A stretch of 64,000 nt of DNA from positions 198,969 through 262,968 of the forward strand of contig NW_005434665.1 of the NCBI RefSeq assembly GCF_000315625.1, in the 5' to 3' direction. The notes under the pieces were generated by a model. It searched no databases, was not told the DNA's origin, and saw only the letters and a list, made by a program, of their open reading frames with translations. This document shows positions 4,457 to 12,274 of this stretch, piece after piece. Every line of letters starts with the position of its first letter. Within the stretch, counting starts at the first letter, position 1. Both the position numbers and the translations under genes were made by a program. This DNA is from Guillardia theta CCMP2712 (taxonomy: Eukaryota; Protista; Cryptophyta).

Positions 4457-5740
4457 TCATCGGATTAAGCCAGGTGCGGCATAGATCCACGGCCCCTGGT
4501 CACTCAACGAATGGCGACGTTTCAGTTGCCGACTTACATCAGCAAGTGACTGCTTCATCAGCTGCTGCTGCTCCTCAAAGATTTGCTTCATTTCAGGATC
4601 GAGATCCTGCTTTTCCAGCATGTTGGCTATATTAGTCAACGTCGACATGATGATGCTGTGACTCTTGTACAGATCTGTCTGTTGCCTGATCGCTTCGGAT
4701 TGAATCTGTACGGATCTCAATTCCGCATCACTTGGATGAGACAACTCTTCGGATTCCTTCTGGGGTCCAGGTTCGCTTAGGCGCGTCTGATCTCGACTAG
4801 GGATCGGGAGTGAGTCTCGATCGGTGAGCTTCTGACGTTTCTCGACCTGATTGTCTCCCTGATAGTCCCCAGTCTGCGACTGTACACTTGCAGATGGCAA
4901 GGACTCGCCCGTTCTGCCCTCTGAGTCTGCCGGAGTATCGTCGGGAAACCTGCTGGGCAAGGGATTGACCAACATTCGGGTAATCTCCGGACACTCTCCC
5001 CCTTCATGAAGCCTTCGTAGGTAGTAGACTTCGTACCACGTGACCCGATACTTGGGCTCGTTCGGCCTCGTAGATTTCTTGCCAACACAATGATTGATGA
5101 AGTCTTTCTCATCGGCTGGTTTGTCCCCAGCCTCGGCCTTCCAGTTCTTCTCAGCTGATGTATAAGTCCTCCTCATTTCCTCTATCCTCTTGTTCACTGA
5201 CTCAGCATCGATCTTTTTGGGGTCTCGACTCGGATCCACCTTGGATCCTAGGTTCGGATCCTCTGCGAAACGATTCTTCGGCATCCACTTGGTATCGTTG
5301 AACTGATCCGCTATCATCTGGAGGGCCAAGTTCCTATCAGGCAGGATCTCTGAGGCGCCCTTGTCTTGCATTCGCAGGGCATTTTGCACTTGCACACGAA
5401 TCGAAGGGATCAGAATGGCCTCGAGCAATCTGACTCCTTCTACGCTGTGCCTCCAGTAGTTGACGCCTAACCTCCCTGGACGAGCAGATTCTCCAGCTGT
5501 AGACGCTGGAATCGACGGGGGGTCAGAAGGCTTTGGTTGGAACGCACAGGTTCCATTCTTTCCACAGAACTTAAGGCGTTGTCCCTCCGCTCCCTCCTTC
5601 CCTGGATCGACTCGGCTGAACCAGCACTTATCACATAATCTATGTTTACATGTGAAGGTGATGAAGAGTCGGAACGGATCCAGTATGACCCCACATTCTG
5701 CACAAAGTGTGATGCCCCTGATGCCTTCTGGTGTTGCCAT
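4457..5740 (-). CDS. Single-exon 427-aa protein: N-terminal RING-like Zn finger, possible Myb/SANT-like helical domain, C-terminal coiled coil
   Basis: CAEC-x14-CKHRLCDKC...C-x5-C pattern in a clean long ORF. The central domain call is tentative. Confidence 0.7.
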   Translation of the reverse strand: MATPEGIRGITLCAECGVILDPFRLFITFTCKHRLCDKCWFSRVDPGKEGAEGQRLKFCGKNGTCAFQPKPSDPPSIPASTAGESARPGRLGVNYWRHSVEGVRLLEAILIPSIRVQVQNALRMQDKGASEILPDRNLALQMIADQFNDTKWMPKNRFAEDPNLGSKVDPSRDPKKIDAESVNKRIEEMRRTYTSAEKNWKAEAGDKPADEKDFINHCVGKKSTRPNEPKYRVTWYEVYYLRRLHEGGECPEITRMLVNPLPSRFPDDTPADSEGRTGESLPSASVQSQTGDYQGDNQVEKRQKLTDRDSLPIPSRDQTRLSEPGPQKESEELSHPSDAELRSVQIQSEAIRQQTDLYKSHSIIMSTLTNIANMLEKQDLDPEMKQIFEEQQQLMKQSLADVSRQLKRRHSLSDQGPWIYAAPGLIR

Positions 5741-6335
5741 ACTGACAGATGGAGAGAGGAAGAGGAAGAGGACAAGGAATCTGAGAGGAGAGTCGGCGAT
5801 TTCCTACACTGACTGCAAGGGCATGGCGCGAAAGATCTGGCGGGAGTTTTAAAACTTCGACAATAAACTTTCAACTTCACTGGGAAATGTTTCGACGTCT
5901 GAAAGTTTGTAAAGTTGGACCTGTGACCGTACACCGATGCCGGCCTATGATGTTGCACCGAATGCTGAAGATCAAGAGCAAGAGCAAGAGGAGGAGGAGG
6001 AGAGGAGGAGGAGAATGCAGCAGAGTATTGTATGATAGGAAGCAAGGAATGAGTTGCAGGGCTGACAGAAGGTGTAGCGATTCGCCAGGGTATGACAAAG
6101 GTGCTTACAACTGGAACGCCCCTAGGACCAGAGACAATTAATTCCATAAAAATGCATCTTCGAAGAGCAATCCATCTCGACGAAATGAGAGATTTGATCT
6201 TTGGATCATTGAAAGAAATATTGTCCTGTAATAGATGAGACCGATGAGGGTTATTTATTACCAGGAATAGAATGTTCAACCGTGACTAAGCAAATTGTTT
6301 CTGGACAGGATCTTCATTTTCTTCCTCGATTCGTC

Positions 6336-7000
6336 ATGTCAGTCACTTCTTCAACAAGTCACGATAGCTCAGAACACTCAAACAACCTTCTAGTGAGAGG
6401 CGCCAAGCATCTCAAATGCTGGTCGAAAGGATCCGAGAATCTGCAGCACAAGTTCTGTATGGCCTTCACCTTGGACTATACGGTTTACAACTTTCAGATT
6501 GCGTATAACGAGAAGCGATGGTTCATTCAAAAGAGATATAGCCAATTTGACAAACTAGACAACGTGGTGAGTTGTGATTTCCGTCGTGTCCGAAGTTTAG
6601 TGTGTTGCAGTTGAACGAGAAATTCCCCGACGTGATGATCAGTGTTCAGCGGCTGCCTCCTAAGAAACCATTTGGAAGTCTTAGCCCAGCTCTCATTGCT
6701 ATGAGGCAGAAAAGCCTCGACGCCTACCTGCAAGCCATCCTGATTCGTCCGGTTCTTGTCAGGAGCGAGGAAGTCAGGGACTTTATCGGTACCTCCCCAA
6801 CATCACTCACTTTCACGTGACGAATATTTGTCAGATATGCCCTACGACGTCAGAGAACTGTATGGCGAAGAACAGAGACATCTCATTGCAGCACAGGATG
6901 CGCTTCGTTGATAACATTCATTGACATGTTGTGTTAGTGTTAAAGGGTTGAGATCATCTGAGGTACTCAGGGGCTGGAGACTCCGTCTGACTATTTCTAA
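6336..7000 (+). CDS. Small PX (phox homology) domain protein; ends approximate
   Basis: YTVYNFQI..WFIQKRYSQFDKLD | LNEKFP..LPPKKPFG..MRQKSLDAYLQ..SEEVRDFI is a typical PX pattern, split by short introns. Confidence 0.8.
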
Positions 7001-7073
7001 CAAAAGAGTTTCTCGTGAAGGAATGAAGCACTGGTGTAGTGTTGACATTGTACATCCCTGCTGCAAAACAAAA

Positions 7074-8760
7074 TCAACATGTGACAATAAACTTAATTGT
7101 GTCCTGCTCACTGGTTGAATTTTCTGACCCCGTCAAGCCTGTTGGCTGCGTAGACCCAACATTGCTCCGTCTGAAAGCAATCATTCATGAACCATCTGAC
7201 CACTTGAAGAATTCAGGAGAAATTCTACCTCGGCGGTCTAATTGGCTGGTCGTCTGTTACGAGGAGATCTGAAAGCGCCTGTGCTGGGAGTTCAGAAAAA
7301 AGAGCCTGACAGGTAAAACGGCTTTCACCTGATTCAAAGACCTCACGTGGTCGACCACGTCATCCATGCTATGAATCGCTCCGGTCTTTGTGATAGCGCT
7401 GAGTTGCACTGGATTTTCAACACCCTGCGAGCCTGTGCACACACGTGAGCGCTTCGACATCGCTCTCTGCTCGTCAGACCAGCGGAGCCTGGGGATCCGT
7501 TTGGCATGGCGTTCACCCCAGGGGCATAACGTTGATCCGAATGTTCGAAATCATTCAAATGATCCAGCGAAGAAAATTGTCTTGTTGCCATCATTGTGTG
7601 ATTCATTTGCTTCAACTGCATAATAGACAGTTATGAATGGAATCAAGCTTTGGTGAAATTGCAAGACCTGCGACAATTCTTGCTCGATTGAATTTTCAGC
7701 ATCAGGAAGGGCGAAGGGGTATTGAGCAGGAGGGTTGTCAGACCTTGAAGCCTTCTGAAAATTCATAATCATATCAATTTTAACTGAGACTTCGAAGATG
7801 ATGATGGCAATCGATTACCTGCTTCGCAAATTCTTCTTCCATAGCAGTTGAAATAGCCGTCTTCGTCACTGAGTCTGTTGTTTTGAAGAAAGTGACTGTT
7901 CCGTAGCTTGACCACTTCCCATCCTGTAGATTCCATAACCTGAACATTGAGTGAGACTTATTACACACAGAGATGGGATCATACGTATCCCAGAAAAGAA
8001 CTCCAAATACGTTCTTGGAAAGCAGATCAGCCAGAGCAAAGCAAACCAATATTACACTGCAAATCTGTCAAGTCTAGACAAACAAGGCATCAAAACACCT
8101 TTCACTGGCGACACATGCACCTTCAACCGAAAGGACGAAGAACAGTGGATACATCGTCCACGATGTGAAGAAAATCACTGCCAGCAACCTGATTCTTTTT
8201 GCAATGATCAAATCAATCTCGCTGCCGCTTTCTTTGTAATGTTTCTCTGCAGCAGTGAAGGTGTGATAATTGATAAAGCAAATTAAACCAAAGATTGCCA
8301 TTGCAATAATGAAGAATAGCCACTTGAGAGACTGGTTATGCGTCAAGGCCGCTGTATGCCCGAAGCATATCATGAGAGTGCTGAAATACATCTGCATGAC
8401 ATTGAGGTCAACTCCATAGATTCGAACAGCTGCCATGCCGTTGATCTGGTTCAAGATGATCGGGACTGTTGCCAACCACAGGACGGTCCTTGTCCACAGA
8501 ACTTGCCTCCCATCCCACAAGAGGATGTATCCAATCTCAGAGTATCCAAGGCCATACACGAAGCATTCGGTGAGGGGAACCAAGACAAACTCCCAGGTTC
8601 CCCTCGGGTATCGCAGAGCGAAGAACACGGCTTGGCAGGCACACATAATCCCCCAGCATAATTCAAAAGTTCGAACGCCCAGGTCAATGTTTGAAAGAGT
8701 TACACAGCTTGGATTTTGTGCCGCCCATTCTCCTATATTCAGATTCGTGAAATTAGACAT
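7074..8760 (-). CDS. Anion channelrhodopsin-like microbial (type 1) rhodopsin, 7TM plus long cytoplasmic tail, about 440 aa, about 8 exons
   Basis: Exons 8760-8099, 8056-7985, 7939-7819, 7754-7668, 7615-7480, 7432-7329 and two further tentative exons splice in frame via 42-64 nt GT-AG introns. Motifs: GEWAAQNPSC, ACQ, TWE, PLTE, WTRTVLWLATVP, SWTMYP, GACVASE, LADLLSKNVFG, LWNLQDGKW. These match the GtACR1/2 pattern as recalled. Confidence 0.92.
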
Positions 8761-9714
8761 GCTTCAACTCTACCATGCAAAAGTACCGTATACGACGCTC
8801 ATTGCACTTGATCAGGCGTACGAGAATTAAAATTGACAGTGCATGGACAGCCGATCTTTCTCCTCCTTTCCCTGCAAAGTCGTGTCAGCAAATTCCAACA
8901 AATCTGCTCTATTTCAGAAGCAACCGACACTGACTGTTACGAGCTGCAATCGCCTATGCAGTAGATAACAGTATCTCTACTAATTTCCACTGTTTACATC
9001 ACTAAGTATCGTCTGATATCAGTTTAATTTCAAAGATCTTCAAATTTCATATCGTGTCCGAATGTCGACGTCACGTCTCTCCGAAGAGAGTGAGATTTTG
9101 TTCTCCACTCAAATTCTCTCCCATGCTGTTTACTCGCGAAATAACTTTTGCTCGTGATTCAGTGCGCTTCTCAGAGCTTCTCTCTTCCTCCTCATCCTTC
9201 TTCTCCTCCCTCTCCTCTCATTTCTCTTCTCTCCGCCCTGCCATTGCTTCTGCTTCAAATCAGCCGTTTCACAGACACTGACCACCCCCTTTCTCCTCCG
9301 CTGTACAGTATGACCCCTACCCTCATCAATAACATCAAGTACCCACCCGTTACACTTTCCCCCTAGTCGGACATTTCACCCCACCCCCTTCCTTTCAGTC
9401 CAGGTCATGGCCCTATCTCGAGTCCACTTTCCGCTTGTCTGTATCTGGGCTGGCCTACTACCCCTTTGAATCCCCTAAAAGGACCCCTCCCCAGGTGTAC
9501 CACCTCCACCCCCTCGTACTGGTCTTTTAAAGGCTACGACTAGGGTGTCAAGACCGACTACCCCTACTTCTCATGATCGGTACCCTACAAATGATGTGAC
9601 ATGGACCCCTACCCACCAAGTTGAGCCATTTACTACCCCTGCGTTCGACCCATTTTGCACAACTCAGATTCAAAGTTTTGTAACTGTTCGTAACGTGGTC
9701 GGTTGTCGGCAGCA

Positions 9715-12274
9715 ATGGATCGACCAGGGACGGTCAAGCGCGGTAAGCAATGGAGGAGGCAGGGAAGGGAAAGAGCGAGTGGGGAGGAGGAGAGGGGAGA
9801 GGATGAATTGGAAGGAACCGAACGGGTAGATCAGGGTGGCAAAGCTCTAAAATGGATCCGGAGAAGGGGAAGGAAATGTGCAGAAAGAAGAATGAATTTG
9901 GAAATGTGAATAAGAGTAGAACAAAGAATGTCGGTAAATGATGCATGAAAAGGAAGAGGAGAGGGATAGAAGGAGAATGGTTGGACAGAGTAGACAGGTG
10001 GTGATGATTTGTCGGAGAGTGGACCCAACAGGGGTTGGCCTGAAACGAGTGGCAGGACCGCCGCTTGCTCCTTCGGCAGGGTTTGGTATGCAGCCTGGCT
10101 TGATGGGTCCGCCTGGAACTGTCATGAGGCCTCCAACTGGGGCGCGATTGGGAACGAGCATGAGGATGGGTACAGCCATGCGGCCTGGATCCAGAGCTGG
10201 TTTGGGTCCACTCAATACAAACATCCAAGTAGCAGAACGGCCCGTCACGCAGCAAGGCATGATGGGCATGAAGGCAACAGTGCAGGGACCAGGCCGACAG
10301 ATCGCTGACAAGACCTACTACATGGGTGAGCTGCGGAAGAAGTGCGACGAGATGCAGTCTGAGATCAGAAAGATGAACACCGAGGTGGAGCAGTACAACA
10401 AAGACAACCAAATGTACAACCAGATGGAACGGAAGTATGAAGTTCTCATCAAGGACGTGCGGAAGCTGCAAGGAGACCTGGCAGACTTGAACCTCATTGT
10501 TGACAAGTCGCGCAACAACACCGACCCACAAGACATAGCCAACGCGTTTCAGGCCCTGAAGGGAAAGAACGATGCAGATCGAAAGAGGGTGGATTACCTT
10601 TTCCTAGAGTGTCAAGCGAAGGAGAATGAAATTCGTAGCATCGAGCAGCAATGTTCTGAATTCCAGAAAAAGGCGGAGGAGAAGCTGAACTCGCTCCCTG
10701 CCGAGCAGCGGATGCAGTACGCACAACTCCAAGATGACTACAAGAGGCTCCTTGCAGATGTGGAGCAGAAGCAGTTGACATACGACAATCTCTGCAGACA
10801 GCTGTCGGCAGGCGAGGAAGCGCTGATGGCTGAACCGCTGAAGCAGAGATTGAACTCGATCCAGGAACAGAAACTCAAACAGTTGGAACAGAAGCGGAAC
10901 CTTGAAGCAGAGCTGAACAAGCCGGTGATGAGTGAGGAGGAGGAGAGGGAGATGTTGCTATCACAAGTCAAAGAAGACAACAAACAGATCAAAATCACAG
11001 AGCGAAACATGGAGGAGATCAACTCGCGAGTAAGGCAAGTGCATCAGGACCTTGAGGAGCTCGAGAAGGGTGGGGGAGTGGTGAGTGATGGCTGAAACTT
11101 TGATGTTGAACTCACTCGTTGAGCAGAAAGAGTCGGAGGATGCAAAGAAATATCAGAAGTTGCGTGAGAAGGACCAGGAGATGACGGAATTCATAGAGAA
11201 TTTCGATCAAAAACATTCAAAGGAGTTGACGACAGTCAAGGAGATTGAGACGAGAATTTTCAAACTTCTTGAACATATCAGTAAGGACCTTCAGCGCCAG
11301 CAGCAGCTCCCGAGCAAGGAGAACTTTCAGGACCTGCAGGATGAAGTTGCCGTGAAGCAAAGAGGGTTGGAAAACTCTCAGTCAACAGCAGAGAGATTAA
11401 GGCAGGAGAAGAAAAATCGTGATGCGGAGCTTGAGAAGATTGTTAATTTGGTGAGCTTTCCTCTGTTAGATTTGTGTTGATGGTCCTGCTGAACTTTTTT
11501 GTCGTTCAGGATCAGAAAATCAACGTCGAGCTGACGTCCCTGAGAGAGAAGAGCGAGCAGATGAAGCAAGAGCTCGAAGTCTTCAGCGACATGAACAAGC
11601 TCAAGAAGGTACTGGCAACCTCCTCTTTCCCTTCTACTTTCTTCGCTCTTGACCTCCTTTCTACGCTCCTTCTCTCTCCCATTTCTCTTCCTCTTCATTC
11701 CAAGTTTCACGCCTGACACCCTCCGACAGGATGCTGAGTCCAACAGGGTGGCAATGACCGCAAAGAAAGCCCAGCTTGACTCCAGGAGAAAGGCGCTGAA
11801 GCAGCAGGTGCCCTCCTTGTTCCATCTCCTCGTCCCCTCTTGGTCACTCGCTGGCTTCAGGTTCAGCTCCTCTCCACCGACTTCGACAAGTGCAAGCAGG
11901 ACCTTGCGACCAACGAGTTCGCAGGTGAGGAGGAGGGGAAGAGGAAGGAGGAGGGCGAGGAGGGAGGCAAATAGCATGCTTGAGTTGATCCTCCTTGTTA
12001 GGCTCGCTCGAGGCTGCTGAGCAGAAGCTGCGTCACTACGAGCAGAACATTTTCCATCTCCGCGAATGTAAAGAAAATGATCTCAGGCTAGTCTCGTGAC
12101 TAACTGCCTGCAGTCATCGACAGCAAGGAGGCGGAGACAGATTATGCTTCTGTGTACGAGGAGGTAGCGACGACCCTCCGCCCCCTCCTCTTGCTGACAT
12201 TCGACGTCCAGGTCAGCTCGCAGGTGGCAGAGATCAACACCATCCTCCAGGCGAAGCACTTGACCCCCTTCTGA
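9715..12274 (+). CDS. IFT74: Intraflagellar transport protein 74/72
   Basis: MDRPGT start, GPPGT..MGTAMRPGSR basic N-terminus, QVAERPVTQQGMMGMK..GRQIADKTYYMGELR, then a long coiled coil. Multi-exon. Confidence 0.93.

Follow-up and report, generated by a model that had tools for sequence, protein, structure and literature searches.

What does a protein do that has the fold of an anion channelrhodopsin (ACR), keeps much of the channel's machinery and yet is listed as non-functional? The question is raised by a gene in a 64,000-nucleotide stretch of the genome of the cryptophyte Guillardia theta (contig NW_005434665.1, positions 198,969 to 262,968; hereafter the window, in whose coordinates all positions are given), for which an ACR-like protein with three atypical residues had been predicted from the sequence alone. 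The gene is Gt161302, that is GtACR3 (EKX52099, GUITHDRAFT_161302, XM_005839022, MT002481), related to the anion channels that serve in optogenetics, with ten coding exons and nine introns on the minus strand. When joined, the exons in the window encode exactly the 461-residue database protein P0124, which is EKX52099. The gene and its transcript comprise the following features:

6954..8802, minus strand: GtACR3 coding span, 461 amino acids, joined coding sequence equal to P0124, stop in the last exon
8802-8787, 8732-8099, 8056-7985, 7939-7819, 7754-7668, minus strand: exons 1-5
7615-7480, 7432-7329, 7278-7229, 7170-7112, 7060-6954 (stop), minus strand: exons 6-10
8733..8786, minus strand: intron 1 (GT..AG, 54 nt), contains the ATG at 8760, spliced in contigs of all three contig runs
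8057..8098, minus strand: intron 2 (GT..AG, 42 nt), precedes helix 7, spliced in contigs, retained in the form P0123
8803..9236, minus strand: 5' leader, about 435 nt long, containing six upstream ATGs (contigs end at 9236 and 9234; upstream ATG scan)

Six of the introns, all bounded by GT and AG, are spliced out in contigs from three public runs belonging to three studies, and splicing of one of these six is borne out by raw reads from a fourth run. A seventh intron was placed from the loose end of one contig, and the last two are the sole pair that reproduces P0124. The splicing evidence consists of spliced contigs, none of whose source runs is annotated as RNA; in addition, the RT-PCR primers published for Gt_161302 (PMC7714340) match the spliced start and window positions 6957-6974. 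The start codon originally proposed, the ATG at 8760, thus lies within intron 1 and the true start is at 8802, while the spliced contigs are incompatible with the proposed single-intron protein of about 312 amino acids. In consequence, the three residues at issue are L90, V95 and S230 and not L94, V99 and S234, the earlier numbers being 4 too high.

Retention of intron 2 ends the protein at 224 amino acids without the Schiff-base Lys, and such a form, lacking helix 7, is found in the databases (P0123), as are other intron-retaining forms without (P0127, P0130, P0132) or with (P0120, P0128) the tail helix described below. These may be regulated isoforms or products of incomplete splicing. All six upstream ATGs of the leader are closed by stops inside the leader, and a long leader of this kind could damp translation. 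Some 700 bases separate the transcript start of GtACR3 from a gene in head-to-head orientation that encodes the intraflagellar transport protein IFT74 (9938-11095 onward, plus strand; match to PDB 8bd7 with E 1.8e-46), and it is possible that GtACR3 and this flagellar gene share a promoter. A small PX-domain gene (6282-6820, plus strand; PF00787, E 5.5e-11) is arranged tail-to-tail with GtACR3, the 3' ends being close together, and at 4457-5740 (minus strand) there is an open reading frame of 427 amino acids with a Cys/His-rich, RING-like start and no match in Pfam or NCBIfam. No neighbour gene was shared across the seven short metagenome loci that were compared.

GtACR3 matches PF01036 with 92 bits, and its top match among solved structures is GtACR1. 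The alignment contains one single-residue gap, near the N-terminus, so that from residue 24 on position n of GtACR3 corresponds to n+7 of GtACR1. An AlphaFold2 model, whose membrane part mostly has pLDDT values above 90, superposes on GtACR1 (6CSM) with a Z score of 33.9 and an rmsd of 1.6 Å over 250 aligned residues, a match also found by Foldseek. In a tree of 56 rows, made up of GtACR3 and 55 members of a set of 146 proteins (one per lineage, long enough to align, with short fragments and near-copies left out), GtACR3 falls into a branch of 28 rows (support 97/96) together with GtACR2 and with P0012, P0009 and P0020, which were assigned by eye to ZipACR, RaACR_687 and PsuACR_353, respectively; GtACR1 is absent from the tree. 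A placement of GtACR3 as sister to GtACR2 was rejected (AU p 1.7e-66). GtACR3 is an ACR-family seven-helix microbial rhodopsin with the Schiff-base Lys in helix 7, as the original prediction had it in calling the protein ACR-like. Among the residues of the channel and of the retinal site are:

8566..8568, minus strand: Glu61 (GtACR1 Glu68, central gate), kept, by alignment
8371..8382, minus strand: Ser123 (GtACR1 Ser130) and Met126 (GtACR1 Cys133, colour-tuning site), by alignment
8014..8028, minus strand: helix 7 with Asp227 (GtACR1 Asp234), Ser230 (GtACR1 Cys237) and Lys231 (GtACR1 Lys238, retinal Schiff-base Lys), by alignment

In GtACR1 numbering, the protein keeps Q46, E60, E68, Y72, Y81, R94, E223, D234 and N239 as well as both cysteines of the N-terminal cap (C21-C219), which are Cys15 and Cys212 in GtACR3 and are predicted to form a disulfide. 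The counterion Asp and the Glu and Asn of the central gate are thus intact. Retention of these residues fits a pore that has been maintained and speaks against a lost one. For comparison with other rhodopsins we take S130 of GtACR1 to correspond to D156 of CrChR2, and L108 to D96 of bacteriorhodopsin (BR). The E82 and E90 sites of CrChR2 are kept as Glu53 and Glu61, and the E83, E97 and E123 sites hold the non-carboxylate residues Phe54, Gly68 and Leu90. In place of the hallmarks of chlorophyte CCRs, Glu123 and the Cys128-Asp156 pair, GtACR3 has Leu90, Val95 and Ser123, and in place of Asp at both the D85 and the D96 site, by which BR-like pumps and BCCRs are recognized (PMC8818676), it has Leu90 and Gln101.

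The three motifs to which attention had been drawn are present on the minus strand between 8015 and 8500, and both the alignment and the AlphaFold model confirm their equivalence with positions of GtACR1: Leu stands at S97 (the D85 site of BR), Val at C102 and Ser at C237. Their supposed atypical character holds for Val and does not hold for the other two.

8479..8481, minus strand: Leu90 (GtACR1 Ser97, BR Asp85 site), variable in the clade, by alignment
8464..8466, minus strand: Val95 (GtACR1 Cys102), Val in five and Ile in two of seven covering clade rows

Of the 56 aligned homologs, 23 have Ser, 16 have Ala and 12 have Cys immediately ahead of the Schiff-base Lys (other or gap in 5), and five working ACRs carry Ser there, RapACR and ZipACR among them, the latter with an identical DLLSKN motif (PMC8406140). 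It is therefore Cys237, and not Ser, that represents the special state, and Ser230 is not a sufficient cause of silence. The D85 site, position 97 of GtACR1 and part of the tunnel lining, drifts within the clade to which GtACR3 belongs (Leu 3, His 2, Gly 1, Gln 1 in seven covering rows), as against S, A, G or T in all 15 rows that represent the mainly Cys-type group. Bulky residues at this site are nevertheless found in two working ACRs, Ile in PsuACR_353 and His in R5ACR (PMC8406140), so that Leu90 is not a sufficient cause either. The clade members with His at the D85 site are found among P0121, P0122 and the loci L005-L007, and in P0122, P0019 and P0105 the place of Tyr207 is taken by His or Ile.

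ACRs have been sorted by residue 102 into Cys-, Thr- and Val-types, with Gt161302 named as a Val-type (PMC8041784). In our tree the Val clade is a branch of eight rows (support 96/93), which together with two sisters makes up ten rows (100/99), and Val or Ile at position 102 does mark this clade in the aligned sequences. P0081 has Val at this position yet falls elsewhere in the tree, on a long branch, and was excluded from the clade counts. In the sister proteins P0007 and P0112, Trp98 of the retinal pocket is replaced by Met and the Lys is preceded by Gln; the same state is found in the silent Hemiselmis proteins HaACR_359 and HrACR_495 of Data Set S1 (PMC8406140), a second silent group. A search of viral contigs gave no relative (0 of 20 pattern matches).

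GtACR3 (MT002481) is entered in Data Set S1 of PMC8406140 as tested and non-functional, and PMC7714340 and PMC8041784, both citing a 2015 paper, report no activity for Gt161302; the protein was not expressed in E. coli (PMC5288786). Thus neither its Val-type class nor its lack of activity is the unexamined oddity that it had seemed to be, both having been published (PMC8041784), whereas small currents or a non-conducting role, which were among the outcomes originally foreseen, agree with the listing of GtACR3 and four further Val-types as non-functional. Function was scored by eye for the 51 named and tested cryptophyte ACRs in rows 201-251 of that data set. None of the five proteins with Val102 is functional (GtACR3, HpACR_213, GcACR_197, C1ACR_561 and R3ACR3), as compared to 6 of 9 with Thr and 33 of 37 with Cys. 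The contrast between the Val-types (0/5) and the other cryptophyte ACRs (39/46) has a Fisher p of 3e-4, a value that is overstated since the silent proteins are related. As they form one clade with Hemiselmis-like sisters (support 100/99), they amount in effect to one event, which singles out no single residue. Of eight ACRs tested by Kikuchi et al., only PsuACR_353 gave a strong signal and the others very weak ones, and the authors speak of signals 'in most' ACRs (PMC8041784). In the same work the Val-type GcACR_197 was pigmented in yeast, which means that it binds retinal.

The screens used constructs of the transmembrane domains only (PMC6051594), and the tested GtACR3 sequence in Data Set S1 ends at residue 288. 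Since such constructs stop before residues 377-399, the tail helix was missing from the published tests, and in these a shut pore would look the same as a missing activator.

Two features of the clade, neither of which had figured in the original prediction, bear on these alternatives. One of them is the residue at position 61 of GtACR1, in the cytoplasmic gate.

8587..8589, minus strand: Phe54 (GtACR1 Ala61, in cytoplasmic constriction C3), with Phe or Tyr in seven of seven covering clade rows

All five tested Val-types have Phe or Tyr at this position and the two silent Hemiselmis proteins have Leu, while in the other 44 tested ACRs, of which 39 are functional, it is Ala, Ser, Thr, Gly or Pro. 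The remaining 5 of these 44 are silent in spite of a small residue at 61, so that failure in a heterologous host is not rare. Bulky residues (F, Y or L) thus go with 0/7 functional proteins as against 39/44 (Fisher p 7e-6, again overstated by the kinship of the silent proteins). Ala61 is one of five residues that form the cytoplasmic constriction C3 of GtACR1, and substitution of Glu for any C2 or C3 residue including Ala61 greatly reduced or abolished the current (PMC6336409), evidence which concerns Glu and not Phe. A second aromatic residue of GtACR3, Phe238, occupies the place of the C3 residue Leu245 and is Phe in 2 of 8 clade rows. Gln101, at the position of Leu108, is out as a block, Gln being present in 10 of 15 working ACRs.

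The other feature is a short helix far downstream of the membrane part.

7252..7370, minus strand: conserved amphipathic helix, residues 377-399, split by the intron 7279-7328, by cross-lineage identity and model

Between Guillardia, Baffinella, Teleaulax and P0090, 17 to 20 of these 23 residues are identical, and all 23 are identical with Hanusia, whereas the preceding linker has 18-28% identity for most pairs of distant lineages (one pair reaches 41%) and the membrane part has 39-55%. In four lineages residues 381-400 are the most conserved block of 20 residues in the protein, with a value of 0.82 as compared to 0.72 for the best membrane block, and the best 23-residue windows of the tail score 19-20 as against maxima of 9-11 in 200 shuffles each. 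For specificity we rely on a profile search of the 146 proteins, in which the tail motif was found only in clade members and in one weak match (E 0.003). All seven metagenome loci carry the Val/Ile form of helix 3 with the tail motif downstream. The model shows a helix from 378 to 396 (pLDDT 89 for residues 381-390) in a tail otherwise of low confidence; this helix has the highest hydrophobic moment in the tail and carries Met, Val or Leu at heptad a and d positions. Searches with the tail gave no family in Pfam and only generic helix matches without a feature match in the ESM Atlas, and a word-index search with residues 366-408, an insensitive one that missed known clade members, gave GtACR3's own cluster only; these results are no proof that the helix is absent elsewhere. 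The tails of ACRs have been described as lacking overall conservation (PMC10637977). Judged from the aligned sequences, the photoactive site of the Val clade is more variable than its tail helix. At window position 7351, within the codons of the helix, run X19 has G for T in 7 of its 49 raw reads, which may be a difference of strain or of allele.

Our preferred reading, to which we give a probability of roughly 0.45 and which is accordingly tentative, is that GtACR3, an expressed Val-type paralog, is a retinal-binding and largely non-conducting light sensor or regulator that acts through its tail helix. The protein would bind retinal, sense green light and go through a photocycle, while its cytoplasmic gate would stay largely shut, so that few or no ions pass through GtACR3 alone. 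The aromatic residue at position 61, in GtACR3 together with Phe238, would hold the cytoplasmic constriction shut, and loss of the Cys102 thiol may add to the closure. The tail helix is a putative protein-binding or oligomerizing element, through which the signal would be handed to a partner, for which a signalling protein or another rhodopsin are candidates. The wider proposal, that an old branch of the cryptophyte ACRs works without ion flow as a pure light sensor or as a light-controlled regulatory subunit with a docking helix, we consider unlikely.

Could GtACR3 instead be a true light-gated anion channel, which needs its native context (the full tail, a subunit as partner, the membrane of an organelle, or a different anion, for instance nitrate) and has been silent because of truncation or poor trafficking? 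The residues of the central gate, the cap and the Arg94 network are kept, all tested constructs lacked the conserved helix, and 5 of 44 ACRs of normal appearance are silent too; moreover, its tail makes GtACR1 favour nitrate more among anions (PMC10637977), a preference on which residue 102 also has an effect (PMC8041784). However, not one of the five Val-types, each from a different genus, worked although most other ACRs did so in truncated form; GcACR_197 was folded and carried retinal in yeast but gave no strong signal; and position 61 is aromatic throughout the clade. We hold this explanation, the main rival, to be somewhat less likely than our preferred reading. Decidedly improbable is a natural channel that is slow in a step-function-like manner, small in current or shifted in colour by virtue of Val95, Leu90 and Ser230, as had been considered for these residues. 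The C102A, C102T and C102S mutants of GtACR1 close slowly and the maximum of C102A moves from 515 to 505 nm (PMC6051594), and very small, slow currents could escape detection. Yet these mutants conduct well while GtACR3 gave no current and the Val-types are listed as non-functional, so that with Val102 as the sole change one would expect a slower channel and not a silent one; and Ser237 and bulky residues at 97 are present in working, even fast, ACRs. A very different colour is not to be expected from the three sites either, as the published colour-tuning positions 133, 156 and 207 (PMC8406140) hold Met126, Ala149 and Tyr200 in GtACR3, the longer-wavelength set similar to that of GtACR1, for which a maximum at about 510-530 nm would be expected.

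Still less probable is a switch to proton or cation movement, be it passive or by a weak pump. The residues lining the tunnel are unlike those of ACRs, and His occupies the D85 site in part of the clade, but carboxylates are lacking at the D85 and D96 sites (Leu90, Gln101) and at the E83, E97 and E123 sites of CCRs, and currents of this kind, which whole-cell recordings normally reveal, are not listed in the covered part of the data. That GtACR3 is a decaying or functionless duplicate is hardly credible, even though no activity is reported for it, it is not among the 25 genes for which PMC7714340 gives qPCR values, only 138 raw reads from one run match it, mostly at the 3' side, and several intron-retaining forms are in the databases: the frame of 461 amino acids is intact, the membrane part is 91% identical with Hanusia, and orthologs in several genera have an invariant Lys and a near-invariant tail helix.

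The gene, its Val substitution and its lack of current were already in print. The pattern at position 61 and the tail helix were not found in the literature passages covered by our searches, which were not aimed directly at either. They allow a sharper test of what silences this branch of ACRs, which is both conserved and expressed, with the aromatic gate residue and the tail helix absent from the constructs as candidates. If the gate residue is the cause, ACR pores possess a natural off-switch; if it is the tail, a whole class of channels has been overlooked through truncation; and if neither restores current, cryptophytes own a channelrhodopsin-derived sensor with a partner. Should the wider proposal of a pure sensor hold, GtACR3 would be a channelrhodopsin turned sensory rhodopsin, in which a helix of 23 residues, more conserved than the membrane core, couples it to a cytoplasmic partner.

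How, then, does GtACR3 compare with known systems? With GtACR1 (6CSM, 6EDQ, 7L1E) it has 33% identity, the same fold (Z 33.9) and the cysteine pair of the cap in common as well as E68, R94, E223, D234, K238 and N239, whereas A61, S97, C102, C133, C237 and L245 of GtACR1 are F, L, V, M, S and F in GtACR3. GtACR1 conducts anions, and a tail without order and without conservation across ACRs has been described for it (PMC10637977). The Thr-types RapACR, RaACR_687 and PsuACR_353 naturally lack Cys102 and yet are listed as fully functional, as are Thr-types and ZipACR that have Ser or Ala in place of Cys237; unlike GtACR3, the Thr-types and ZipACR have a small residue at 61, belong to separate branches and have no tail helix in the full-length members compared. 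When translated, the exons in the window are identical to the GtACR3 record, whose tested form ends at 288 without the 377-399 helix. The Val-types HpACR_213, GcACR_197, C1ACR_561 and R3ACR3 resemble GtACR3 in Val102, Phe or Tyr at 61, Met133 and their listing as non-functional. They differ by species at two positions, 97 with Leu or His and 237 with Ser or Ala, and R3ACR3, which is outside the tree set, departs from GtACR3 in having Gln for Glu68. As in GtACR3, the tail helix is present in the full-length Val-type proteins of Hanusia and Baffinella, and it is carried as well by the loci that agree with GcACR_197 in the motifs of helices 3 and 7.
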